This document shows, one piece after another, positions 13,744 to 37,039 of a DNA stretch of 64,000 nucleotides. Source of the stretch: an uncultured Candidatus Saccharibacteria bacterium. GTDB taxonomy: Bacteria > Patescibacteriota > Saccharimonadia > CAILAD01 > BJGX01. The translations under genes and the position numbers were made by a program. Position 1 is the stretch's first letter; each line of letters begins with the position of its first letter. Location: positions 22,283 through 86,282 of the forward strand of contig CAZKFZ010000004.1 in assembly GCA_964552475.1 (NCBI GenBank), in the 5' to 3' direction. A model generated the notes under the pieces. That model was not told where the DNA came from. It searched no databases and was given only the letters and a program-made list of their open reading frames with translations.

Positions 13744-14619
13744 TTATGTATTTAGGTATGAATAGATAAGTTCTTCTGCTTGTGAAGTATCTTGTATCCA
13801 AGAGATATGCTTATTTCTTCTAAACCAGGTTAGTTGTTTTCTAGATAATTGCCAGGTGGCGTTATTTATTTTAGCTTCTAAATCATTATAGCCCAACTTA
13901 CCATGAAGGTAGTCAATTACTTGGGCGTAGCCAGTTGTGTGTAGAAGTATGTCTGCTTGCCCATAGGTTTTTAGTAAATCCTCTACTTCTTGTATAAAGT
14001 TATTATTCAACATATATTTTGTACGTGTTGCTATATTTTGCTTTAATATAGGCGTTTCTACATACAAACCCAAGACTAGTGAGTTAGGTATATTGCGTTT
14101 TCTATCGTTATCTTTGCTAGGACCTTTGGTGATTAACTGCTCAACTCTACGCCTATTTTTTATATCAATATTAATATAATCTTTAGGGTATTTTTGCTTT
14201 GCAACTTCTTGGAGTTTAGTAAGGCTCATTTCTTTGATTTTTGTTTGGTCGGCAGGGCTTAATGTATTTCTGAATTTATAATCATACAATACTGTATCTA
14301 TATACATACCACTACCACCTACCAAGAATGGTAATTTGTTCTTTATTTCTATGTTAGTAATAGCTCTTTGTGCTCCTTTTTTATATTCGGCAGCACTAAA
14401 TGGTTTGTCTGGACTACAAACATCAATAAGATAGTGCTTCACTTCTTTTTGTTCAGATCTAGTTGGTTTGGCTGTGCCAACGTTCATCCCCTTGTATATG
14501 GTTCGAGAGTCAGCACAGACAATCTCGCCATTAAATTCTTTGGCCAATTTAATTGATAGCGAGGTTTTGCCAGAGGCAGTAGCACCCAAAATAGTGACTA
14601 GTTTACTATTATTGTGCAT
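13744..14619 (-). CDS. miaA: tRNA dimethylallyltransferase
   Basis: 291 aa with P-loop GATASGKTSLSIKLA and CADSRTIYKGMNVGTAKPT, the MiaA family signature. Confidence 0.85.
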   Translation of the reverse strand: MHNNSKLVTILGATASGKTSLSIKLAKEFNGEIVCADSRTIYKGMNVGTAKPTRSEQKEVKHYLIDVCSPDKPFSAAEYKKGAQRAITNIEIKNKLPFLVGGSGMYIDTVLYDYKFRNTLSPADQTKIKEMSLTKLQEVAKQKYPKDYINIDIKNRRRVEQLITKGPSKDNDRKRNIPNSLVLGLYVETPILKQNIATRTKYMLNNNFIQEVEDLLKTYGQADILLHTTGYAQVIDYLHGKLGYNDLEAKINNATWQLSRKQLTWFRRNKHISWIQDTSQAEELIYSYLNT

Positions 14620-16433
14620 TACAGGCTACGATTTTTGATATTTTCCAATAATGTTGCTAAAAATACCTCATACTTTTGAGTTCCAAGGTCATTTCCCCCA
14701 TATTTCCTTATAGATACAGAACTTGTTTTTTGCTCTTTCTCACCTACAATCAACGCATATGGAACTTTCATAACTTCCGCATTACGAATTCTTTTGCCAA
14801 GCGACTCTGATGAATCGTCTAATTTTAACCTAATACCAGAAGCATGGTAGTGCCTGGTAACTTCTTGCGCAAACTTATTATATTTTTCTGATACCGGAAT
14901 TATGCGTACTTGTTCTGGTGCTAGCCATAGAGGGAATGCCCCTGCAAAATGCTCAATGAGTATCATAATAAATCGCTCAAAAGAGCCAAATATTGCTCGG
15001 TGTATCATAACAGGGGTGACTTCACTACCCTCATTATCTGTATATGTCAGACCAAAACGCTTGGGTGTAGCGAAGTCTAATTGTACTGTAGCGAGCTGTG
15101 TCTCTCTACCAAGGGCATCTTTAAACATAAAGTCTAGCTTAGGCCCATAAAGAGCAGCTTCGCCCTCCATACGCATTGCGCCAAGTTTTTTCTCTTCTGC
15201 AAGCTCAGTAAGCATAGATTCAGATTGCTCCCAGTCCTTCTCATCGCCAATATATTTTTCAGGTGTCTTAGGGTCGCTCACAGATAATGAAACCCAATGA
15301 TTACCCCAGAGTCCTAACGACGTATAGAAACCTTCTATTAGTTCTACTATCATGCTTGCTTCTTGCTTAATCTGATCAACCGTACAGAAGGTATGCCCAT
15401 CATCTACGGTAAATCCTCGTGTTCTTTGCAATCCACCAATCTCTCCGGGTTTCTCGTCGCGATACTGCATAGTCTGTTCTACATACCTAATAGGAAGATC
15501 TTTATAGCTTCTTGGTTTAGATGCATATATCTGTGTATGATGTGGGCAATTGACTGGCTTAAGTACAAACTCTTGTTTGTGATGACTAGCTACCTTAAAA
15601 AGTTCATCTGCAAATTTCTCGGCATGACCAGATATATTGTAGAGATCAATCTTGGCCAGATGTGGAATAGATACCTGTTGCATTTCGTGTTTTGCACCAA
15701 GATCCTTAAGTACCGTCTTAAGCTCTTCTATTAATACCGTTCCACGAGGTGTATACATAGGCAGTCCAGAACCGACAAGTTCTGAAAAAGTAAATAAATC
15801 GAGCTGTAGCCCAAGCTTACGATGGTCGCGCTTGGCAGCTTCTTCTAACATTTGCTTGTAACTAGTTAATTCGTCTTTAGTTGTAAAAGCTACACCGTAA
15901 ATTCTTTGAAGCTGAGGATTATTTTCGTTACCACGCCAAAACACACCTGATATTTTAGTTAAATCAAAGCCTTCTGGGTTTATTTCGGACGTATTTTTTA
16001 CATGTGGGCCACGACAAAGATCTACAAAACTACCTGTTTTATATACTGTAACTGTTGTTATTTTTTCTGCATTTTGTATCAAATCGCTATCGCCAGCATC
16101 ATCCACGGCGGTTGAACCCTTGGTTTTTAGATCTTTTAGCAGTTCTACCTTAAGATCTTGATTATTCCTTTTAAAGTATGTAATGGCTTCGTCTATAGGC
16201 CACTCCTCTTTTACAAAGTCAATTTTCTGACTAATCATTTTTTGCATGGCTTTGCGTATCTTTGGTAGGTCTGCCAATACTAGGGGCTTATCTAAGCCCA
16301 TATCGTAGTAAAAACCATTCTCTACTACAGGACCAACACCAAATTGAGCTTCTGGGTGCTGCTGCTGTATCACAGCTGCCATAATATGGGCGAGGCTATG
16401 TCTTATCTTATGTAGCTGTTCACTTTTGTCCAT
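14619..16433 (-). CDS. thrS: Threonyl-tRNA synthetase
   Basis: 604 aa with the HSLAHIMAAV (second additional domain), class II core motifs and a C-terminal anticodon-binding domain. Confidence 0.9.
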   Translation of the reverse strand: MDKSEQLHKIRHSLAHIMAAVIQQQHPEAQFGVGPVVENGFYYDMGLDKPLVLADLPKIRKAMQKMISQKIDFVKEEWPIDEAITYFKRNNQDLKVELLKDLKTKGSTAVDDAGDSDLIQNAEKITTVTVYKTGSFVDLCRGPHVKNTSEINPEGFDLTKISGVFWRGNENNPQLQRIYGVAFTTKDELTSYKQMLEEAAKRDHRKLGLQLDLFTFSELVGSGLPMYTPRGTVLIEELKTVLKDLGAKHEMQQVSIPHLAKIDLYNISGHAEKFADELFKVASHHKQEFVLKPVNCPHHTQIYASKPRSYKDLPIRYVEQTMQYRDEKPGEIGGLQRTRGFTVDDGHTFCTVDQIKQEASMIVELIEGFYTSLGLWGNHWVSLSVSDPKTPEKYIGDEKDWEQSESMLTELAEEKKLGAMRMEGEAALYGPKLDFMFKDALGRETQLATVQLDFATPKRFGLTYTDNEGSEVTPVMIHRAIFGSFERFIMILIEHFAGAFPLWLAPEQVRIIPVSEKYNKFAQEVTRHYHASGIRLKLDDSSESLGKRIRNAEVMKVPYALIVGEKEQKTSSVSIRKYGGNDLGTQKYEVFLATLLENIKNRSL

Positions 16434-28524: not shown

Positions 28525-29226
28525 CTATTTGCCAGGCATTGAGCCGTCTTTTGGCGGCTCTTTTGCTTTTTGTTGTTTAAGATATTCAGCCATCTTCTTG
28601 CGACCCTCTTCTGTTCGTCCAAGAGTAATCTCTTTCATACCGTTTGACCATAACTCAACTACACCCTCACGCATCAACTTATTTATTTCTTGTGTTGTTG
28701 GCTTTGCTTCAGGCGTTGTTTGAAGTATTAGAGCCTTAGTATCTGCTACCGCTTTTTTGTTTTTGTAATGCAGATGTACTAACTCGCCGATAAACTCGTC
28801 TTCTGGGATTGAAGGTATCGGTGGTTTCTCTAAGTATTTAACGAGGAACGACTTATAACCATACCTACTTCTAATAACTTTAGTGACCTGAGCTAGGTCG
28901 CCAGCTGCAACTACAAAGTCGTTCACTTCTATATCTGGTTTAGTCTTCTTGGTGTGTAGGGCCACAGGATAATCATTTTTTTTCACAAGGTCAGCACACA
29001 TCTTGAGAAAACCATTTGTGTTGTGTATCCGCATCAAGTCTTTGGTGGCGTTAACAACGTGCAGTGATAGTATGCCAACTCTGCCCAGATGCAAATCTAG
29101 GTCGTCTAGGCTCAGATTACGGCTACCCGCAGAACCTCCAGGATGAAGCGACTTGCTTTGACTGCCTAGCGATACATAGTGTGTTCTTAAGACAGCCTTT
29201 TGCTCTGGCTTCATTTTTGGAAACAC
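28525..29226 (-). CDS. Hypothetical protein
   Basis: 233-aa open frame in an AT-rich context where the opposite strand is full of stops. No motif recognised. Confidence 0.4.
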   Translation of the reverse strand: MFPKMKPEQKAVLRTHYVSLGSQSKSLHPGGSAGSRNLSLDDLDLHLGRVGILSLHVVNATKDLMRIHNTNGFLKMCADLVKKNDYPVALHTKKTKPDIEVNDFVVAAGDLAQVTKVIRSRYGYKSFLVKYLEKPPIPSIPEDEFIGELVHLHYKNKKAVADTKALILQTTPEAKPTTQEINKLMREGVVELWSNGMKEITLGRTEEGRKKMAEYLKQQKAKEPPKDGSMPGK

Positions 29227-29583
29227 CGCTTGAAACCTGAGGTTGAGAGGATTACTCTCAATGAATACGACGAATATGTTAAAGACCTAAAAGCTAGGCA
29301 AGAGCAATTGGATGAGCAACTCGTAAGCCTTACGCATAACGACAAAAGCTTTATGCTAACCAGCTCATACCTGTTAGAGATAGCCACAAAAGCCCCTAAG
29401 CTATTCCAAAGTTCTAAAGCGGCTCTAAAATCAAAGCTATTACGCTTTGTACTTTCTAACCTTGAATTACACGATAAAAAGCTCCATTTCAATCTAAAAA
29501 CACCCTTTGATGTAATCGCAGAGTGTTCTCAAAATGCTGATTGGCGGGCCCGACCGGATTTGAACCGGCGATCTCCTCCGTGA
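29200..29583 (+). pseudogene. C-terminal remnant of a large serine recombinase (DUF4368-like tail)
   Basis: The ORF encodes a coiled-coil-like segment (EYDEYVKDLKARQEQLDEQL) followed by KSKLLRFVLSNLELHDKKLHFNLKTPFDVI, resembling the conserved C-terminal tail of large serine recombinases. No N-terminal catalytic part exists upstream on this strand. The 3' end overlaps the tRNA-Asp 3' end. Confidence 0.3.
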
Positions 29584-29618
29584 CAGGGAGGCGTGTTAGG
29601 CCTCTACACCACGAGCCC
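29542..29618 (-). tRNA. tRNA-Asp (anticodon GUC)
   Basis: The reverse complement GGGCUCGUGGUGUAGAGGCCUAACACGCCUCCCUGUCACGGAGGAGAUCGCCGGUUCAAAUCCGGUCGGGCCCGCCA has anticodon loop CUGUCAC and T-loop GGUUCAAAUCC. Confidence 0.85.
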
Positions 29619-29708
29619 AGGGTTTTGGCTTAAAACTAACCTGATAATTTTACCAAATATTGTCCACATTTACAATAAAACACCCCGGGCAAATGCCTGA
29701 GGTGTAGA

Positions 29709-30310: not shown

Positions 30311-30988
30311 CTACACCCCTTTCAGGCCAGGTTTGGTAGCTAAGCGATATGTTAGCGACACTCGTGGCCCGCAAATTGGCGGAGGTACTGAGTGTGTAGG
30401 GCGCAAATCTTCATCTGTTGGGTACAAACCTGGCGCACGCATAATTAGCTCACTACCAGGACCAGTTTGCAATACTCTATTGGGCACAGTGTCATCACGA
30501 GTTGAATACATTTTTAGTTCACCCGTGCCAGCAATGGTATATGACACAATTAGGTGAATATCGCTACTGTAATCGCGATGACGTCCAATACCATCATAAC
30601 GATCGCTATAGCGTTGCACAGCAACATCGTTAGGTTGCCAGGTTTGCAAGCACTTATAGCGACCAGCACTAGCTCTTACCATCTGGCCTAGCGTATCGCC
30701 CAATTCTCGCATAAGTGGGTAGTTTTGCCGTGTAGACTCGTCAAAATAGACCGGCGCAAATACCTCGAATCGCTGGTATACACCTTGTTCTATGTCGAAA
30801 AAGCGACAAAATTCACCTTTTAGTACCTCACTTGCCAAAGCTTTGGTGAAATCTCGGCTCAGTGCCTGGGTAGTAAAGGCATAGCCACTTCTGCCTGCAT
30901 CCGAAATTCGCCCGGCATAATCTGGTGGTGTAGCAAATATCTCCATTACACTCCCCTTTCGAGTTTGTTTAGCAAGACATACCAACAA
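30311..30988 (-). CDS. 2OG-Fe(II) dioxygenase, AlkB-like
   Basis: 225 aa with the HRD (HxD) ... H ... RVSLTYR arrangement. The last element closely resembles the AlkB RxNLTFR 2-oxoglutarate-binding motif. Confidence 0.55.
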   Translation of the reverse strand: MLVCLAKQTRKGSVMEIFATPPDYAGRISDAGRSGYAFTTQALSRDFTKALASEVLKGEFCRFFDIEQGVYQRFEVFAPVYFDESTRQNYPLMRELGDTLGQMVRASAGRYKCLQTWQPNDVAVQRYSDRYDGIGRHRDYSSDIHLIVSYTIAGTGELKMYSTRDDTVPNRVLQTGPGSELIMRAPGLYPTDEDLRPTHSVPPPICGPRVSLTYRLATKPGLKGV

Positions 30989-31272
30989 CTTATGTGAATA
31001 AGGTAACAGCGATGCCCTAAGCGGTCCAGCACTACCTCTACCGTATCTGTTAAGGCAAAATCCACTCCGCAGCCATTACAAGCACTTCCTACAGCCTTAG
31101 GGTAGCATTCTAGCTCAAATACACCTTCGCTCTCGAGTACTTTTAACATCTTAGTCTCCTTTGTGAGTAGCGATATAGTAATTGGGCCTGCTGTAGCCAT
31201 GACTAACCATATACCAACACAACGCAATAGACGCCGGCCCAAAAACAACCTCAGGCTCGATATCGTTAGCAT
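30946..31272 (-). CDS. Small Cys-containing hypothetical protein (possible NifU-like fragment)
   Basis: 108 aa. The segment VFELECYPKAVGSACNGCG resembles NifU/Nfu CxxC regions. The frame overlaps the next small ORF, so a frameshifted single gene is possible. Confidence 0.25.
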   Translation of the reverse strand: MLTISSLRLFLGRRLLRCVGIWLVMATAGPITISLLTKETKMLKVLESEGVFELECYPKAVGSACNGCGVDFALTDTVEVVLDRLGHRCYLIHISCWYVLLNKLERGV

Positions 31273-31333: not shown

Positions 31334-31383
31334 TTTTGGCTCCTAAAGTTGATTGTTAAGGTTCTCTCGGTAGCTTTAATACT

Positions 31384-31411
31384 AAAAAACTGCCCGAGAA
31401 GGCAGTTTTTT
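31384..31411. terminator. Bidirectional rho-independent terminator
   Basis: AAAAAA-CUGCC-CGAGAA-GGCAG-UUUUUU: a perfect 5-bp GC-rich stem flanked by an A-run and a U-run. Confidence 0.55.
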
Positions 31412-31635
31412 AGTTAATATTAGTAATAATTACAGATACAAGCTTAAAAACTCCCTTCTAAAGCAGTGTTTCTAGCAAAATATTGAAATGATGACCAAGT
31501 GGTGTGTTTTTTATTCAGTAACATTATTTCTCTCTCTTATGTCTATAAGCATAACAAAATCAAAAATTATTGTCAAAAATGGTGCTCTACAGGTTGGTGT
31601 ATCTGTTAAACTATATAAAAAAGTGTTAAAAACTA

Positions 31636-31670: not shown

Positions 31671-32119
31671 AATGCTTAGTCAGTAGGCAGAGAACCTCAC
31701 AGATCAAAAAACCACAAAAAGAAACTGAGAGGAGGTGCACGTGTTCGTCATTCAGAACCGTGCTACCGAGTATATAGATAGTTTCTAGGAGCAGTTGGAG
31801 CCTCTACTAGAGCCGTTAATCTATATCTTATAGATAATGGCTCAAAAACGCTTTTACCACCCGGCATATCCGCCAGACTTTTACATATTGAGTTACCAAA
31901 CTCATTCATGGGTAGACCCATGAGTATTTGTGAAAGTAAAGGAGTTAGCGACAAAAAATTGACGCTAAGGTATCAGCGCCGTAGAGTACTCTCATCTGTT
32001 CCGTCCTTAAGGACAACTAACAATGTTAGTTTGTCCGCTTTACGACCCATCTAGCCTTGCGAGCAATGCTCCTTGGCAGACGGGTCGATAGACCCCACCT
32101 TTATTAGGTGGGGTTTTTT
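31671..32119 (+). ncRNA. Candidate ncRNA or small-peptide transcript of about 450 nt (unclassified)
   Basis: Delimited by the consensus promoter at 31636..31664 and a strong intrinsic terminator at 32093..32119. The longest plus-strand ORFs inside are 15, 27 and about 44 codons. Several stable hairpins are present. It is not tmRNA (no tRNA-like 3' end), and RNase P RNA has already been found elsewhere. Confidence 0.35.
32093..32119 (+). terminator. Rho-independent terminator
   Basis: CCCCACC-UUUAUUA-GGUGGGG followed by UUUUUU. Confidence 0.7.
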
Positions 32120-32146
32120 CTATTCTAAGTTGTGTTTTTAATATAG

Positions 32147-32560
32147 TTATTTAGAATCTATAGAATAAGTCATGCCACATACAGCGCCAAGATCTATATC
32201 GCTGCTTATTGCTTGATTATAAAGATCTTCTAATACAACCAATATTATATTGGTATTAGCACCAGCACTTTCTAGATAAAACCGCTCGCCAGACACATTA
32301 TCGAACAACTCTATGGCTTGCAAGGGCCATTGTTTGGCTACAGAATAGGCATGGCGTAGCTCAGCCTCAGTAATTAGCCAAGCAGTTTTTTGGTGACTTT
32401 TAAGGCTCTCAAAAGTCTCGGCTACGTTGCCGGTAATATGATAATTATTGCTTTGCAAAGCACTTTTGAGGTTATCTATATTACTGTCTTTTTCATAAAT
32501 AATAAGACCAACCTCGCGACTTTGGGCTTGAGCTGTTAAAAAAGTGTGTAAATCTTGCAT
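32147..32560 (-). CDS. Hypothetical protein, third gene of the AAA_5/vWA module
   Basis: 137 aa, co-oriented with and 24 nt downstream of the vWA gene. No motif recognised. Confidence 0.4.
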   Translation of the reverse strand: MQDLHTFLTAQAQSREVGLIIYEKDSNIDNLKSALQSNNYHITGNVAETFESLKSHQKTAWLITEAELRHAYSVAKQWPLQAIELFDNVSGERFYLESAGANTNIILVVLEDLYNQAISSDIDLGAVCGMTYSIDSK

Positions 32561-32584
32561 ATTAGTTATATCTTAACATAATAC

Positions 32585-34639
32585 TTAAGCTTGCTCTATA
32601 ACGCGCCTTAGTACCTCTACTAGTGCGGCTGGCAACTCAGCTACATCTTGTATTACTGAATAGTCTGGGTAGTAATCGGCTACAGAATCTGATTGTATAC
32701 CGATACTAGCTAGTTTTTGGTTGGTATTATGAATTATGTTGTCTACCACCCTATGCAAATCATATTCGGGCCCATTGTGCCTGTAGCTTTCGGCTGGCTG
32801 TCCATCAGATAAAATAACTACAATTTTCTCGGTACCAGGTTGCTGAGACAAACGTTCAGAGGTTTCTGTAAGCGCCCAACCATCGTCATTGTACCCAGAT
32901 AAATCATAATCGCTTGCTTCTTCTATCATACCAGGAATAATTTCGCGACTTGGTTTACCAAACTGCTCATCAAACCCCTTGTATTTATGCAAAACTGAAT
33001 TAAAACCATATATTTCAAAACGAATATTAAGCTTACTTAGCACCTCAGAAAACACTATAGCGCTCTTTAGGGCCTCTTCTACTCTATCGCCTGCCATAGA
33101 GCCAGATAAATCTACTAGTAGACTTATAGTATAGTCTTTTTGGGTGGGTAACTCTCGCCTCTCCCAGGCTTTGCTTTGTACAGCCGAAACACCCTTAGCT
33201 TTTTCGGATATCCGCTTGCCAATATTAATACGTTTACCCGTACGATAGCCACTTTTGTAGCCATGCGAAGATCTGGCAATAAATAAGTTATTAAGATCGT
33301 TATACAAGCTATCTATGAGTGGCTTGAGCTCTTTGTAGAGTTCATTATAGTAATCTAGTTGCTCGTCTTGCTCGGTTTTTTCGCTAGGCTGATCTTCTTG
33401 GTCACCCTCTTGTGAGGGCTTAACGGGCTCTATATCGGCATCGGCATCGAGAGGTTCGCCCGAGTCACTATCTGAGGCTTCGCTAATACTAAGCTTGGCT
33501 TCTAGTTGGTCGGTAATCTCTTTATCTAAATCGGCTAGGGCCTCGGCAGCCTCTTCGTGTAGCTGTTGTTTAACATCTTCTGGCAAACTAGCAATAAATT
33601 CTTGTAAGGCCTTGAGTTGCTCTGCGGATAGGTCTGAAAGTTTAATGGGTTGGTAGTAGCCTTGCTCTTTGGCAATTTCGGCGGCCTGCTGAAGCATCTC
33701 TTGCAAGTCACTTGGTAATTCGTTAAAGCCTTCGGGGGTATTTCCGTCTACCAAATCTTTTATCATTTTGTGTAGTTGTTTGGCGGCGGCGGCATTGGCT
33801 ATATCGATATCGACAAGTTTTTTAAATTCTGGCCAAATTTGGTCGGTTAATATTGCCCCACTAGCTTTGGCGTATTTATCTACCAAGGCGCTCGATCTGT
33901 CGGCCTCTTCTTTGGTAGGGTATGTCCACCACATATCTTGTAAGTATGGAGCTACTCTTGCAACATAATCTTTTATTTCTTGAGGTAGTTCTGGGTTTAC
34001 CTGTATGGGTTGGCGTTGTCTATCTTGATACCAAAGACTCATATTCTCATAACTAGCTAATACATGGAGTGGTTCAAATCCCAGTTCAGACTGAGCTCTT
34101 TGTATGGCACTATGGTGCTTTTCTAGATAGTCTTTATAATAAATATCCATCCCTTCATCTAATAATCTATAATTGTCAGATAAAAAATTATTTACCCTAG
34201 GATCTTCTAAAACGCTATATAGCACATTTCCACCTGGCAGGTGACGCATTTCTTGCACCGACTCAATGATACGGGTTATTCGCCTATGACTGGCCTCGTG
34301 GCCAATGCTCCAGCGATTTTCTTGAGCAGGGCGCTCTAGTAGATCTTGTAAACCCACAGCTACGTAGTTTTCATTCATACTCCAATACCATTCACGGCCC
34401 GGCGCGAGTATTACTGGCATATCGAAGTCTTTACCTATAAAGCTACTTATCACACTTAAGCTTCGCAAGCGTTCTTGCACCACCCGACGTTGAGACAAGG
34501 GCAAGCTAGCTAGCATAGCCTCAGAACGTTCTTTGTCAGCCTGGTAGGTTAGCTCAGGGTCTGGGGCGTGACCATCACGCAGTACTCCACTGGCAGGTGG
34601 TTCGGCCTTGGCAGCGTATGTCTTTTCTATCTCACCCAA
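32585..34639 (-). CDS. vWA (MIDAS) domain protein with an N-terminal HExxH putative metallopeptidase-like domain (DUF2201-like architecture)
   Basis: 684 aa. N-terminal SIGHEASHRRI (HExxH). The central region is an acidic coiled-coil/low-complexity linker (DSDSGEPLDADADIEPVKPSQEGDQEDQPSEKTEQDEQ). The C-terminal vWA domain has ISLLVDLSGSM (MIDAS DxSxS) and VVILSDGQP. Confidence 0.6.
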   Translation of the reverse strand: MGEIEKTYAAKAEPPASGVLRDGHAPDPELTYQADKERSEAMLASLPLSQRRVVQERLRSLSVISSFIGKDFDMPVILAPGREWYWSMNENYVAVGLQDLLERPAQENRWSIGHEASHRRITRIIESVQEMRHLPGGNVLYSVLEDPRVNNFLSDNYRLLDEGMDIYYKDYLEKHHSAIQRAQSELGFEPLHVLASYENMSLWYQDRQRQPIQVNPELPQEIKDYVARVAPYLQDMWWTYPTKEEADRSSALVDKYAKASGAILTDQIWPEFKKLVDIDIANAAAAKQLHKMIKDLVDGNTPEGFNELPSDLQEMLQQAAEIAKEQGYYQPIKLSDLSAEQLKALQEFIASLPEDVKQQLHEEAAEALADLDKEITDQLEAKLSISEASDSDSGEPLDADADIEPVKPSQEGDQEDQPSEKTEQDEQLDYYNELYKELKPLIDSLYNDLNNLFIARSSHGYKSGYRTGKRINIGKRISEKAKGVSAVQSKAWERRELPTQKDYTISLLVDLSGSMAGDRVEEALKSAIVFSEVLSKLNIRFEIYGFNSVLHKYKGFDEQFGKPSREIIPGMIEEASDYDLSGYNDDGWALTETSERLSQQPGTEKIVVILSDGQPAESYRHNGPEYDLHRVVDNIIHNTNQKLASIGIQSDSVADYYPDYSVIQDVAELPAALVEVLRRVIEQA

Positions 34640-34669
34640 AACAACAAATACCTATTATTATTTAACACC

Positions 34670-37039
34670 TCACAACTCGGCTCCCCAAGAGTGATTACGC
34701 TTGGGTTCACTATTTTGTTGGCTACTAGTGGGTCCCCAGCCTGGTGAGTGAGTGGGTGGCGGTGGTGGGTTTGGAGTAGGTGGCCGTGAAGCTGTGGGTG
34801 GAGACGATATTGGCGAGCCGGCCGGCGCAAAAGCCGAACCAGCCATTGGGGTACCGATAGGCGATGACCCGGTTGGTACTCCACTAGCAGGTGTAGAAGT
34901 AGTACCCAAACTTTCTACAGCATTTAGGGCTTGCAATACCCAGTTGTTACCTATAGACATAGCATAGTAGTCAGGCTTATCAGCGTAGTGGTCTTCGCGC
35001 GCTTGCCAGGCTCTGGGTGAAAAACAACCACTCATGCTCTTGGCAAGCGTAGCTTCAGAAACACGTCCCTCAAGTATTTCTCTAATACCCCAAGCCCAAT
35101 CGGTATCTAGGCCGGCTAAAGATATGGCAAGTGCCTCTTCATTTCTATTAGTTATAAACTCATTTCTTATATCGCTTGCAGTACTTGAGTCGTCACCAGA
35201 AATCGCCCAAGCTATGGCTGTTAGCTTCTCGCTTTCTGTAAGACCAAATAAGTTGACATCTAATTCTAGTAGTTCTAACTTTACCGCAGTGGTATTGGGG
35301 TATTTAATATAGCGCATGCCGAGTGCAAAAGCACTGGGTTTTTTACCAGCTTCTTTTAAAACCACCATTAACTCAGAAAGTCCTGGTGTTTGGCTTAGAC
35401 CGGCAAGAGAAGTGATGATAGCATTTATATCTTGTTCGTCAAAAGAGTCTATATCTGATTTTATCACTTCTATAAATTGCTCTTCACCACCATAATGCGA
35501 TACCACATCGTGACCAACCATACCATTAAAACCTGCGGAGTGTCTACTAGCCATTAATAGTCCATTAAGATCTGATTCAACGTCAGCGCCCATAACTCCT
35601 GCCAAAGACTTACCATAGGCTTTGGTGTTGCCGGACTTGTTCTTTGTATCTATTCGAATGGTAAAGGCTGTTTCCGAAGGATTGCCAGCAAGGGCGGTAA
35701 GTATAACCGGATCTTTGGCTGGCCCAGCTGGCCCAATGAATACCTGCAACTCTTGTAGGCGTTTGGCAATATATTCGGGGTCTCTTAGAGTTTCGGGGTC
35801 GCTTGGTAACTCTGCTGTGCTACTGCTACCACTTACTCCGCGCCTACGTGAGTCGCCAGTGTCTTCTACCTTGATAGTGTGTATTTTATCTATCATTTCT
35901 TGGCGTTCAGTTGGGTCGGCAAGTTTATTGGCATAGTAATACTCGAGTGCTCTGTGGACGGTTGCGTTAAGATCACCATTATAAAAATTACAAATAAACT
36001 CAGCTACTCTGTTTATTTCTTCGCGGTCGTCATAGCTTATTTTTTGAGGTTGGTCGCGTCCTATCTCACCTGCTTTGGCTTGGCTTTTTACCATAAAGTG
36101 AAAAATACGAATTTGCTCAGCCATATCGGCCATGCCAGGAATAGCACCCAGTTCTTCGCGAGTAAGAGTGCGTTCTCCGCTGTGTAGATATTTACTCTCA
36201 TTTGGTTTAGCAACTTCGGTGCCTTTTTTCAGTCCAAACGTAGCATCTACATAGCCCTCCACCGACTCTTCTGGTAACTCCTCTGGTAATTTAATATAGA
36301 CCCATCTTCTAAACTGGGCGGGGTCTAGAGGGTGACGCTCTGAATACTCGCTACCGTTACGACTAGGAGCGTTACCAAGAGCAACAATGCTAAGATTCTC
36401 ACGCACTACCTTGAGCCGTTTAGAAGCATCTTCGGTTACACTAACCATTCCAGAGTCTTCATAAGCATCTATGACTTCGTGCAGACGTATAAGAATATCG
36501 GGGGTGGCAGCATTGAACTCGTCCACCATTAAGATTACTTTATGGCCTTTTATTGCCTCTTCTATAGCTGCCGTAACCGGGCCATTGGCAAAAACATACT
36601 CAGGGTCTTCGGTAGAGTGACGGTCTGGGTTGGGCGCGTACTGACCCATAAGAGACGATGTATCGTCACTACCCTTCATGTTGATATAGTGAACAGACCA
36701 ACCCAGCTCGTGAGCCATTTTACGCACAGCCGAGCTCTTACCTACCGAAGTGCCAGCTTCTACAAACACAGGCTGATGCAAAGCAAAAGCTGTTGCTAGG
36801 TCGCGTTGCAATTCTTGACTAAACTCATCTTCTACATAGCCTTCTTTCTTAAGCGGGACTTGCTCTTCTTCACCAGTACCTTTAGGTAGGCGCACGCCCA
36901 AATATTCAACATATTGGGGCTCAGCAACAGCTGCCAATTCCACAAGATGTGGCATATCTACAGACGATGGCTCACTACCTACTGGCGTAGGCTCATTTGC
37001 TACATCTGACCCACTATCACCGAGTGCTGGTTCTGGCAC
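34670..37039 (-). CDS. AAA_5 (MoxR/CbbQ/NorQ-like) ATPase with a long C-terminal extension and Pro-rich tail
   Basis: 789 aa. Walker A is AGTSVGKSSAV and Walker B is ILMVDEFN within an AAA_5-like core (residues about 90-290). About 450 aa of helical repeats follow. The C-terminal 80 aa are a Pro/Ser/Thr/Gly-rich low-complexity region ending PPTPNPPPPPTHSPGW. Confidence 0.6.
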   Translation of the reverse strand: MPEPALGDSGSDVANEPTPVGSEPSSVDMPHLVELAAVAEPQYVEYLGVRLPKGTGEEEQVPLKKEGYVEDEFSQELQRDLATAFALHQPVFVEAGTSVGKSSAVRKMAHELGWSVHYINMKGSDDTSSLMGQYAPNPDRHSTEDPEYVFANGPVTAAIEEAIKGHKVILMVDEFNAATPDILIRLHEVIDAYEDSGMVSVTEDASKRLKVVRENLSIVALGNAPSRNGSEYSERHPLDPAQFRRWVYIKLPEELPEESVEGYVDATFGLKKGTEVAKPNESKYLHSGERTLTREELGAIPGMADMAEQIRIFHFMVKSQAKAGEIGRDQPQKISYDDREEINRVAEFICNFYNGDLNATVHRALEYYYANKLADPTERQEMIDKIHTIKVEDTGDSRRRGVSGSSSTAELPSDPETLRDPEYIAKRLQELQVFIGPAGPAKDPVILTALAGNPSETAFTIRIDTKNKSGNTKAYGKSLAGVMGADVESDLNGLLMASRHSAGFNGMVGHDVVSHYGGEEQFIEVIKSDIDSFDEQDINAIITSLAGLSQTPGLSELMVVLKEAGKKPSAFALGMRYIKYPNTTAVKLELLELDVNLFGLTESEKLTAIAWAISGDDSSTASDIRNEFITNRNEEALAISLAGLDTDWAWGIREILEGRVSEATLAKSMSGCFSPRAWQAREDHYADKPDYYAMSIGNNWVLQALNAVESLGTTSTPASGVPTGSSPIGTPMAGSAFAPAGSPISSPPTASRPPTPNPPPPPTHSPGWGPTSSQQNSEPKRNHSWGAEL

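Follow-up and report, generated by a model that had tools for sequence, protein, structure and literature searches.

A Patescibacteria-wide cassette of AAA_5 ATPase, HExxH–vWA adaptor and AAA-like small protein, and its DGR-free copy in a 64-kb window

Three packed genes on the minus strand of the window (the whole stretch of 64,000 nucleotides analysed here) have been shown to represent one copy of a Patescibacteria-wide three-gene cassette, and this copy is a DGR-less variant endowed with a repeat domain and a permuted gene order. The AAA–CLec type of DGR target had already been reported; what is new here is the fixed nature of the trio in the Patescibacteria, the tie of the family to DGRs and the existence of the DGR-free, repeat-domain copy of the window. 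By analogy with better characterized systems, the cassette would best be explained as a ligand-sensing AAA+ switch controlling a putative zinc peptidase through a MIDAS adaptor, a reading to which we assign a probability of about 0.5.

The locus and its three products

The three genes are separated by intergenic gaps of 30 and 24 nt, and each product has in NCBI an identical counterpart of the same length, encoded on a 105,879-bp contig, which means that an independent annotation has the same starts. The three reading frames and the coordinates proposed in the sequence-only reading, an earlier annotation made from the letters of this DNA, are confirmed by both the ORF list and these identical proteins. 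The operon probably ends at a pair of hairpins lying directly 3' of the third gene. The features are the following:

34670..37039, minus: gene of the 789-aa AAA_5 ATPase, whole ORF with stop, GTG start (ORF list, Pfam, identity with NCBI protein P0043)
35855..36907, minus: conserved AAA+ module, residues ~45-395 (66-sequence alignment, motif positions)
nt 36734-36754, minus: Walker A, G96..K101-S102
nt 36518-36523, minus: Walker B, D173-E174
34940..35722, minus: clade-specific C-terminal repeat domain, residues ~440-700 (alignment of P0043-P0047, motif matches)
34673..34897, minus: Pro/Ser/Thr/Gly-rich low-complexity tail, residues 715-789 (58% P/S/T/G; PPTPNPPPPPTH at residue 753)
32585..34639, minus: gene of the 684-aa HExxH–acidic linker–vWA/MIDAS protein, whole ORF, TTG start (ORF list, Pfam CobT_C and VWA)
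33764..34522, minus: N-terminal conserved domain, residues 40-292, putative gluzincin-type metallopeptidase (invariant columns, AF2 model)
nt 34286-34300, minus: H114-E115-x-x-H118, invariant
nt 34202-34207, minus: E145-D146, invariant
33380..33499, minus: acidic disordered linker, residues 381-420 (pLDDT <50; 32% Asp/Glu)
32588..33142, minus: C-terminal vWA domain with MIDAS (D510-x-S512-x-S514 at nt 33098-33112; D612)
32147..32560, minus: gene of the 137-aa third component, predicted P-loop-less AAA+-like alpha/beta domain, ATG start (ORF list)
31961..32116: two terminator-like hairpins (32090-32116; 31980-31961 on the minus strand), consensus matches only, from a pattern scan of the sequence

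The 789-aa protein is an AAA_5 ATPase of the MoxR/CobS/midasin clade and, judging from its sequence, an active-looking one. The Pfam model AAA_5 (PF07728; cut-off 22) scores 37.1 bits over residues 99-233, and the motifs conserved in a 66-sequence alignment, namely Walker A G96-x4-G100-K101-S102, Walker B D173-E174, the sensor-1 Asn in ALGN and R244-R245, are all intact, so that the original assignment to AAA_5 stands. The family HMM recognizes residues 39-580 (E=1e-156), and the AAA_5 modules of the relatives are 36-45% identical to that of the window ATPase. As to the extension of ~450 aa of helical repeats that had been described, its length proved overestimated, ~390 aa being found past the AAA+ module, whereas a repetitive character is borne out by four to five copies of the motif 'LAG.D[TS]..AW..R', with matches at residues 450, 609, 641 and 669. 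These repeats are common to the clade of the window (alignment of P0043-P0047), match neither the standard C-domain HMM nor any Pfam model, and take up the place that in most relatives belongs to a lectin-type domain diversified by a DGR. The Pro-rich tail that had also been pointed out is found, in the same alignment, exclusively in the window ATPase and in its 83%-identical relative P0044.

The 684-aa protein matches Pfam CobT_C (68 bits, cut-off 21) and VWA (26.1 bits), and possesses, together with the vWA fold, the DxSxS … T/D … D residues of the metal site; D510, S512 and S611-D612-G613 are invariant, and S514 at least 90% conserved, in 38 homologues sharing 33-83% identity. Invariant in the same homologues are also H114, E115, H118, R120, E145, D146 and R148, with the sequence HEASH occupying residues 114-118. 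The N-terminal HExxH, the acidic linker and the C-terminal vWA/MIDAS domain of the sequence-only reading are in this way substantiated, whereas its description of the N-domain as DUF2201_N-like finds no support: no peptidase or DUF2201_N (PF13203) match is found at E<=5 in any of the 38 members, and the domain matches no Pfam or NCBIfam model and, in a profile search, no PDB sequence. In the AF2 model (mean pLDDT 81.8) the N-domain is predicted to comprise strands at 76-96, a helix at 105-121 carrying the HExxH and a second helix at 137-156 carrying E145, and this order of beta-sheet, HExxH helix and Glu helix fits the zincin fold. The spacing between H118 and E145 is 26 residues, a second-His-to-Glu distance that lies within the gluzincin range. 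From the motifs and the predicted topology we infer that residues 40-292 may adopt a metallopeptidase fold. The fold searches list vWA matches only, because the whole 684-aa model was used as the query, the best structural matches being the MIDAS of MDN1/Rea1 and the VWA of NorD; at the sequence level the PDB matches are CobT and midasin, the latter spanning the linker and the MIDAS region (E~1e-10).

The family of this second protein includes 41 full-length homologues, and its HMM matches the window protein at 4e-227. A profile of the N-domain retrieves 529 clusters, nearly all consisting of proteins of ~650-850 aa, and a vWA domain is present in all but one of the ten clusters checked with Pfam.

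The 137-aa protein is predicted to be a degenerate AAA+-like alpha/beta fold devoid of a P-loop, a likeness confined to the level of the fold: NorQ and CbbQ are among its best fold matches, and its hhalign comparison with the AAA core of the ATPase is not significant (E=0.08). It matches the family HMM at 1e-34, and with a size of ~135 aa across the family the small third gene, previously noted as a hypothetical one, turns out to be a conserved cassette member.

None of the three proteins contains hydrophobic segments compatible with a TM helix or a signal peptide (maximum 19-residue Kyte-Doolittle mean 1.24). Sensing is therefore probably intracellular, and this probably suits defence or signalling more than it suits adhesion. 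The same property weighs against the possibility, which we hold to be improbable, that the cassette serves an epibiont in attaching to its host or in interacting at the surface, the variable or repeat domain binding molecules of the host-cell surface; with such a role it is also difficult to reconcile the requirement of an ATP-driven ring for cytoplasmic ATP and the lack of secretion genes recurring nearby, although a role in host interaction has been proposed for CPR/DPANN DGR targets (PMC10907252, PMC8632793) and vWA and lectin-type domains, to judge from the structural match list, are common in adhesins.

Distribution and genomic setting of the cassette

In 83 related loci the same three genes share a strand, and for this reason the features of the cassette are far beyond chance. 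Relatives of the vWA protein are encoded in 119 species genomes out of the 185,579 scanned, a figure obtained in a pattern-limited search that counted the carriers only. In the great majority of the loci the order is vWA>small>ATPase, that of the clade of the window (L001-L003) being ATPase>vWA>small. Viral relatives are rare (only 4 in 2.9 million viral contigs), and a tblastn search with the N-domain or the small protein yielded no match in 50,697 phage records.

The window copy resides in core-gene, or housekeeping, synteny and not in an island. Indeed, the block VTT – M16 peptidase – NDK … bPH – PpiC – ATPase – vWA – small, in which a gene for a PpiC/SurA-type foldase adjoins the cassette, is syntenic with that of the genome of locus L001, whose cassette proteins are ~38-40% identical to those of the window; the cassette has been inherited vertically within a core-gene block. 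None of the defence and mobile genes flanking the relatives is found around the window copy, and the earlier impression of an accessory-looking stretch must be revised in this sense. Likewise, the arrangement is not an orphan, since the cassette is Patescibacteria-wide and its ATPase belongs to the commonest reported architecture of CPR DGR targets. A search with the PADLOC models gave no match for the three window proteins.

The comparison of gene neighbourhoods that had been called for among relatives, besides establishing the co-orientation of the trio, identified the reverse transcriptase as the top recurrent neighbour (40/83 loci), followed by bAvd (16). The other recurrent neighbours, i.e., AbiEii, Fic, HEPN and Dcm genes, occur in only 4-6 loci each. 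Neither a substrate-like or client gene in the 83 loci nor secretion genes or CobN-like neighbours were found to recur beside the cassette.

Ties to DGRs and the DGR-free copy

Pairs of variable and template repeats (VR/TR) are present in 41 of the 83 loci, the variable repeat being formed by the terminal ~120 nt of the ATPase gene, and 838 of the 875 pooled VR/TR mismatches fall at template adenines. In the DGR-bearing relatives the template repeat, bAvd and the reverse transcriptase gene lie downstream of this 3' variable repeat; free-standing paralogues of the ATPase C-domain are DGR targets as well. Since the 3' end of the gene is an adenine-mutated variable repeat, the ATPase family can be equated with the DGR target described in CPR bacteria as 'AAA ATPase–C-type-lectin' and, for the same reason, the tip of the ATPase in these relatives is a hypervariable, lectin-type binding site. 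This AAA ATPase–CLec type is, in the account given by PMC10907252 with reference to Paul et al. 2017, the commonest DGR target architecture in CPR bacteria, and UVR4 DGR targets match the AAA motif of midasin (Wu et al. 2018, PMC5758913). In the accessible literature, to which Paul et al. 2017 does not belong, no mention was found of the DGR-target ATPase being obligatorily partnered by an HExxH–MIDAS protein and a small AAA-like one.

The situation is different in the window, where no reverse transcriptase ORF is found at E<=10 within the 64 kb, the 3' end of the ATPase gene has neither a repeat copy nor a template repeat within the same distance, and the standard C-domain HMM detects no lectin-type C-terminus. 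The clade of the window has either lost the retroelement or never had it. Could such a copy be a decaying relic, which after the loss of the DGR and of the lectin-type tip is heading to pseudogenisation and does nothing specific? The missing reverse transcriptase, TR and standard C-domain, as well as the lineage-specific low-complexity tail, could be read in this way, yet the three ORFs are intact, all catalytic and MIDAS residues are conserved, the repeat domain of the clade has been kept among proteins only 36-38% identical and synteny is retained over the same divergence; furthermore, a nearby DGR is also missing in 17 of the 49 well-covered loci. Decay is thus a most implausible explanation.

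Candidate mechanism and relation to known systems

The mechanism that would correspond to a ligand-sensing switch can be outlined by analogy with Rea1/midasin, NorQD, CbbQO and the MoxR–vWA ternary systems. In such a scheme the ATPase would form a ring whose C-terminal domains, variable in the DGR-bearing relatives and fixed in the window copy, bind a ligand; the MIDAS domain of the adaptor would dock onto the ring, or onto a client, through an acidic residue, and ATP hydrolysis would pull the adaptor via the acidic linker, thereby activating or inactivating the HExxH domain (the putative zinc peptidase). As for the AAA-like protein devoid of a P-loop, it may serve as a non-catalytic partner of the ring, as a cap or as a regulator. 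The mechanism of the MoxR–vWA systems and the idea of a DGR-diversified sensor are described in PMC7159879 and PMC10907252.

A more far-reaching and more tentative version of the switch is that the cassette represents a Patescibacteria-wide programmable intracellular receptor, consisting of a hexameric ring with six tips, rewritten by the DGR in most lineages but germline-fixed in the form of a repeat domain in this Saccharibacteria clade, in which an invader or host protein would trigger a MIDAS-tethered zinc protease under the control of a pseudo-AAA regulator. The CPR/Patescibacteria are unusually rich in DGRs, and we know of no function for the commonest CPR target of these elements, an AAA ATPase whose lectin-type tip is variable; if true, the receptor reading would provide the first mechanistic role for this target and a natural 'fixed versus hypervariable' pair of one and the same receptor. 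An orphan 'variable protein' becomes a defined three-part machine with testable sites in Walker B, in the MIDAS Asp/Ser and in the HExxH through three results: the ATPase is always accompanied by an HExxH–MIDAS adaptor and an AAA-like protein lacking a P-loop, the three proteins have a cytoplasmic look, and natural DGR-free versions exist. The copy with fixed specificity offers biochemistry a simpler entry, since a single sequence would be expected to recognize a single ligand, and co-culture and genetic tools have been reported for Saccharibacteria.

Among known systems, the CPR AAA ATPase–CLec DGR targets belong to the same family as the window ATPase, and the HMMs of this family match all three window proteins; unlike those targets, the window copy has no VR/TR, no reverse transcriptase in 64 kb and a repeat domain in place of the lectin-type end. 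With the MoxR–vWA ternary systems the cassette shares the combination, in one operon (83 loci), of a MoxR-clade ATPase, a vWA protein and a conserved third component. The conflict or signalling role suggested in the sequence-only reading is a reasonable one. The ternary types described are VMAP, iSTAND, FtsH and beta-propeller (Kaur et al. 2020, PMC7159879), and such systems, which descend from CoxD/CoxE and have an N-terminal vWA and a C-terminal effector or CLec on the same protein (PMC7159879), are often accompanied by a peptidase and, likewise often, by a DGR through which a lectin-type sensor domain is diversified (PMC7159879; Doré et al. 2024, PMC10907252). In the cassette, on the other hand, the vWA domain is C-terminal and of the CobT/midasin type, the HExxH is N-terminal, the variable domain is on the ATPase, and the third component is the 137-aa AAA-like protein instead of any of the four types mentioned. 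CPR genomes, for which information on habit is lacking, were left out of the multicellularity association test (PMC7159879/PMC10907252); should the switch model hold, the concept of 'ternary conflict systems' would extend, with a different wiring, from multicellular bacteria to ultra-small epibionts.

Midasin (Rea1/Mdn1) likewise combines an AAA_5 ATPase with a MIDAS domain and a linker rich in D/E, and it matches the vWA domain best in structure and well in sequence. The MIDAS of midasin binds the UBL domains of ribosome assembly factors, and the cassette could accordingly be imagined as a split midasin that strips a factor off a large complex such as a pre-ribosome. Both the match over linker and MIDAS and the midasin-motif matches of the DGR targets of Wu et al. 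(PMC5758913) are in line with this idea, which we nevertheless regard as unlikely: midasin is a single giant polypeptide with six AAA modules and has nothing comparable to the invariant HExxH domain, whereas the cassette distributes its parts over two or three proteins with one AAA module each; no partner resembling a UBL was found, the third protein being AAA-like, the tip is DGR-diversified in the relatives, and the distribution, as far as the pattern-limited search tells (119/185,579 species genomes), is apparently patchy.

CobS/CobT and the phage cobST pairs resemble the cassette in combining a small AAA_5 ATPase with a protein made of N-domain, acidic linker and CobT_C-type vWA; phage cobT is often annotated as 'peptidase' (PMC8651126). 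Orthology with CobS and CobT was considered and rejected (NCBIfam TIGR01650, 17.3 bits vs 558.55; TIGR01651, 34.4 bits vs 759.05), and so was kinship with the CobT N-terminus (no PF06213 match in 38 members; hhalign probability vs canonical CobT of 0.3%). NorQ/NorD and CbbQ/CbbO, in turn, share with it a MoxR-type hexamer served by a single vWA adaptor, the VWA of NorD being a top structural match, but their adaptors have no HExxH domain, they include no third AAA-like subunit or variable domain, and no cognate substrate gene (NorB, Rubisco) adjoins the cassette. That the module is not an orthologue of any of these pairs placed beside its substrate, as implied in the first annotation, is upheld by these scores and by the lack of a recurrent substrate gene. 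A housekeeping chaperone for assembly or metal insertion similar to CobST, NorQD or CbbQO, acting on a single client and using the HExxH to bind or deliver a metal without cleaving peptides, is nonetheless the alternative to be taken most seriously, even if we consider it rather doubtful. The CobT_C type of the vWA, the PDB match to CobT and that to NorD, the parallel of the whole layout with CobT (P0042) and the location of the window copy in a conserved core-gene block, next to the foldase, speak for it. The equivalog scores, however, are far under the cut-offs, the N-domain shows no sequence kinship with the N-terminus of CobT, which in its canonical form lacks an HExxH, and no CobN was seen; moreover, the recurrent neighbours are the reverse transcriptase and Avd and not a client-like gene, a hypervariable tip in about half of the loci is hard to square with one fixed client, and only 119 species genomes were found as carriers in the pattern-limited search.

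Returning to the switch controlling a putative peptidase, a further parallel, drawn by description, is that with Mg-chelatase, whose BchD subunit combines a MIDAS-vWA with an acidic/Pro-rich linker and an AAA+-like domain that is inactive, and has the active AAA+ BchI as its partner. The set of modules is the same as in the cassette, where, however, the inactive AAA-like module forms a 137-aa protein of its own that has no lid domain, and the HExxH domain is found in the adaptor instead.

Genes, surroundings and distribution of the cassette

The cassette comprises the genes of an ATPase, of an adaptor (N-terminal HExxH domain, residues 40-292, followed by a linker and a C-terminal vWA/MIDAS domain) and of a small protein, arranged head-to-tail on the minus strand with spacers of 30 and 24 nt.

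Features of the cassette and its 3' side
34670..37039, minus strand: ATPase ORF, 789 aa (ORF list)
32585..34639, minus strand: adaptor (HExxH–vWA) ORF, 684 aa (ORF list)
32147..32560, minus strand: small-protein ORF, 137 aa (ORF list)
32090-32116, plus strand: strong terminator-like hairpin and T-run, 3' of the plus-strand promoter-like site (pattern scan and sequence)
31980-31961, minus strand: terminator-like hairpin (pattern scan and sequence)
29200-29583, plus strand: 127-aa ORF overlapping tRNA-Asp (29542-29618, minus strand), in the side region 29200-29633

The three-gene module proposed by the sequence-only reading is confirmed by the ORF list and by the NCBI contig (105,879 bp), which encodes proteins identical in sequence and length. 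Within the window, whose G+C content is ~36-45% and whose tRNAs are scattered, the cassette terminates a core-gene block encoding a VTT-domain protein, an M16 peptidase, NDK, a NUDIX protein, an HhH-GPD glycosylase, tRNA-Arg, a bPH protein and a PpiC/SurA-like foldase. This block is syntenic with L001, a relative's locus on a 651-kb contig, despite the fact that the cassette proteins encoded there are ~38-40% identical to those of the window; the window version, which is devoid of a diversity-generating retroelement (DGR), is thus old and vertically inherited, not a recent island. The surroundings, which had been described as accessory-looking, are therefore not so, and neither the presumed "recombinase remnant" (29200-29583), matched neither by Pfam nor by a serine-recombinase HMM from the relatives' neighbours, nor the presumed "orphan ncRNA", for which no Rfam family exceeded threshold, is part of the module. 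The closest relative (L004, 81-83% identity) derives from a MAG labelled Candidatus Saccharibacteria.

The last cassette gene is followed by the two terminator-like hairpins found by pattern scan, and the gap before the next ORFs (31961-32125) also contains a plus-strand promoter-like site (31959-31987); this gap, in which Rfam detected no family at threshold, may encode a small RNA of ~120 nt, antisense to the operon 3' UTR, or may just be a bidirectional terminator. Farther on, a hairpin-rich, AT-rich spacer (31381-31483) gives a sub-threshold Rfam RNAI match (32 bits vs a gathering score of 47, E 7e-4), most likely by chance, and overlapping minus-strand candidate ORFs (225 and 108 aa; 30311-31272), none with a Pfam match, lie between a methyltransferase gene and the cassette.

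A one-genome-per-species scan found a relative of the adaptor encoded in 119 genomes, and the 80 loci retrieved belong overwhelmingly to records titled as Patescibacteria (Saccharibacteria, Paceibacteria, Falkowbacteria, Peribacteria, Berkelbacteria, Gottesmanbacteria and others). Near-identical Patescibacteria-type cassettes occur in records titled as Gammaproteobacteria, Pseudomonadales, Anaerolineaceae, Bdellovibrionales or Micrarchaeota MAGs (L010, L020, L022, L024, L029, L030, L061); these labels probably reflect mis-binning or mislabelling rather than a real distribution outside Patescibacteria. Tabulation of the neighbourhoods, as had been proposed, revealed that the three genes share the same strand in 83/83 loci, the order being vWA>small>ATPase in most of them and ATPase>vWA>small in the clade of the window (L001, L002, L004). 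At one locus (L036, 9181-16130) a single vWA gene is followed by two successive pairs of small-protein and ATPase genes.

The three proteins

The identification of the first protein as an AAA_5 ATPase is upheld by an above-threshold Pfam match over residues 99-233. The catalytic motifs, namely Walker A (G96…G100-K101-S102), Walker B (D173-E174), the sensor-1 Asn and R244-R245, are kept across 66 aligned full-length family members and, judging from this conservation, the ATPase looks enzymatically active; that the cassette is a decaying relic is considered very improbable. The conserved AAA+ module extends to about residue 395, and the ~390 residues beyond it, in which "LAG·D[T/S]··AW··R" motifs recur and which match no Pfam family, are common only to a small clade of relatives (P0044-P0047, 36-83% identity). 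The Pro-rich tail noticed earlier is indeed present, limited to the window protein and its closest relative.

The C-terminal third of the adaptor is, as expected, a vWA domain, of the CobT_C type according to Pfam, in which the MIDAS residues D510, S512 and D612 are invariant and S514 is at least 90% conserved among 38 homologues; in the PDB its sequence is matched by CobT (E 8e-19) and by midasin (E ~1e-10). The acidic linker, also anticipated, is found at residues 381-420 and is disordered. The N-terminal ~250 residues constitute a distinct conserved domain in which H114-E115-x-x-H118, R120, E145-D146 and R148 are invariant among 38 homologues (33-83% identity). Of the earlier proposal of a zincin-like, DUF2201_N-like domain, the HExxH motif stands and the family assignment does not, since with 38 members Pfam yielded no match at E<=5 to DUF2201_N, CobT-N or any peptidase family. 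Likewise, no match was obtained for this domain in NCBIfam, in a profile search of the PDB or in an hhalign comparison with canonical CobT, whose N-terminus is unrelated and lacks HExxH. Two fold searches with the whole adaptor model were swamped by vWA matches; the predicted order of elements (a three-stranded sheet, the HExxH-bearing helix and the E145-bearing helix) would be that of a gluzincin. The N-domain profile retrieved 529 clusters among 1.84 billion representatives, almost all of 650-850 aa, and Pfam found a C-terminal vWA in 9/10 of those checked; lengths and vWA content together imply that fusion of the two domains is the rule.

The small protein, whose homologues adjoin the vWA gene in 80/83 loci, has no match in Pfam, PHROG, NCBIfam or PADLOC. 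Its AF2 model, built from an 81-sequence alignment (pLDDT 91.2, pTM 0.87), is AAA-like, a designation restricted to the level of fold because the hhalign profile comparison with the AAA core of its partner was not significant, and sequence homology to that core was accordingly rejected. The family consensus is without a GK[S/T] P-loop and the lid domain is absent.

Diversity-generating retroelements in the relatives

Clustering of the adjoining ORFs identified only two frequent neighbours: 40 loci have a reverse transcriptase of ~334 aa and 16 a bAvd protein. In relatives, the ATPase gene closes with ~115-125 nt that are repeated ~400 nt downstream, short "ORFs" matching the end of the ATPase HMM being these template repeats, and the mismatches fall almost only at adenines of the downstream copy (15/15, 17/18 and 10/11 in the first three loci). 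Pairs of variable and template repeats occur in 41/83 loci, with 838/875 pooled mismatches at template adenines; full-length ATPase genes hold 40 of the variable repeats, and C-domain copies of ~330 aa that stand on their own hold 14. Where a complete ATPase gene and >=2.5 kb downstream are available, a DGR is present in 32/49 loci, and the DGR-bearing relatives display lectin-type signatures at their C-termini (e.g., "…GVSFSR", "…IGFRVAV").

The ATPase family is the CPR (Patescibacteria) "AAA ATPase–CLec" DGR target of Paul et al. 2017, to the extent that this work is conveyed by Doré et al. (PMC10907252), and agrees with the "UVR4" targets for which Wu et al. (PMC5758913) noted a midasin motif. 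Paul et al. 2017 aside, the literature examined contains no description of its constant partnership with an HExxH–MIDAS protein and an AAA-like small protein.

Several loci depart from the simple arrangement. In L036 a single template repeat (14595-14711) is matched by the variable repeats of both ATPase genes, 13/14 and 15/15 of the mismatches falling at adenines. AAA-less C-domain paralogues of ~280-365 aa, found in or just after the cassette (L007, L008, L014, L016, L018, L031, L035, L038, L039, L065, L083), are diversified by the cassette's own template repeat. Some ATPases, much longer than the rest (925-1159 aa), have a further, internal copy of the variable-repeat region that is not adenine-biased (L041, 12291-12405; L068, 11493-11625; L078, 9587-13066), which suggests that lectin-type domains stand in tandem and that targeting at present concerns the last one only. 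Other recurrent neighbours are an AbiEii toxin (6 loci), Fic/DOC (5), HEPN (4) and a C5 DNA methylase (4); the flanks concerned, defence-island-like in character, are those of L003, L005, L006, L010, L012, L013, L019, L022, L023, L032, L041, L047, L060, L062, L064, L066, L073 and L083.

The window has no such equipment. Its 64 kb contain no RT-like ORF and no second sequence resembling the 3' end of the ATPase gene that could be a TR, and homologues of the relatives' flanking Avd, AbiE (AbiEii), Fic, HEPN, Dcm and recombinase genes are missing; a DGR in the window was thus rejected, and the defence-island-like context of the relatives is absent from it. Furthermore, the window ATPase does not match the HMM of the standard C-domain, a fixed repeat domain replacing the variable tip in this old, vertically inherited version.

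Comparison with known systems and proposed mechanism

None of the three proteins is matched by PADLOC, so that a known defence system was rejected, as was a phage origin, PHROG matches being confined to the AAA and vWA domains. A tblastn search of 50,697 phage records with the N-domain or the small protein gave no match, and only 4 relatives were found among 2.9 million viral contigs. The systems that the cassette most resembles in its working are the MoxR–vWA ternary systems (Kaur et al., PMC7159879), to which it nevertheless does not belong, differing in third component, domain order, vWA subtype and location of the variable domain. With CobST, NorQD, CbbQO and midasin it has domains in common, but not orthology; a client-specific assembly or metal-insertion chaperone is a doubtful alternative and a midasin-like disassembly factor an unlikely one.

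Observation provides the conserved parts list, catalytic and metal-site residues that are intact, fold assignments for two domains and the DGR targeting in relatives; to these a mechanism may be added by analogy with Rea1, NorQD, CbbQO, the MoxR–vWA ternary systems of Kaur et al. and the sensor model of Doré et al. The ATPase ring would bind a ligand via its C-terminal domains, the adaptor would be coupled to the ring or to a client through its MIDAS domain, and an ATP-driven pull along the acidic linker would gate the HExxH domain, the putative effector, the AAA-like small protein acting presumably as a non-catalytic partner. A surface or host-attachment device seems improbable, since all three proteins lack a hydrophobic segment fit for a signal peptide or membrane anchor. 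The assignment of the window cassette to the family and its DGR-less status within the window are held with high confidence and the sensing–switch–peptidase mechanism is proposed tentatively; for the best overall explanation, which covers both, we estimate a probability of about one half.

Taken singly, the window copy is unremarkable within its large, uncharacterised family. On the other hand, the family-level picture renders directly testable two matters of long standing, the targets of CPR DGRs and the reason for diversifying them, and the DGR-free window copy offers a handy starting point.
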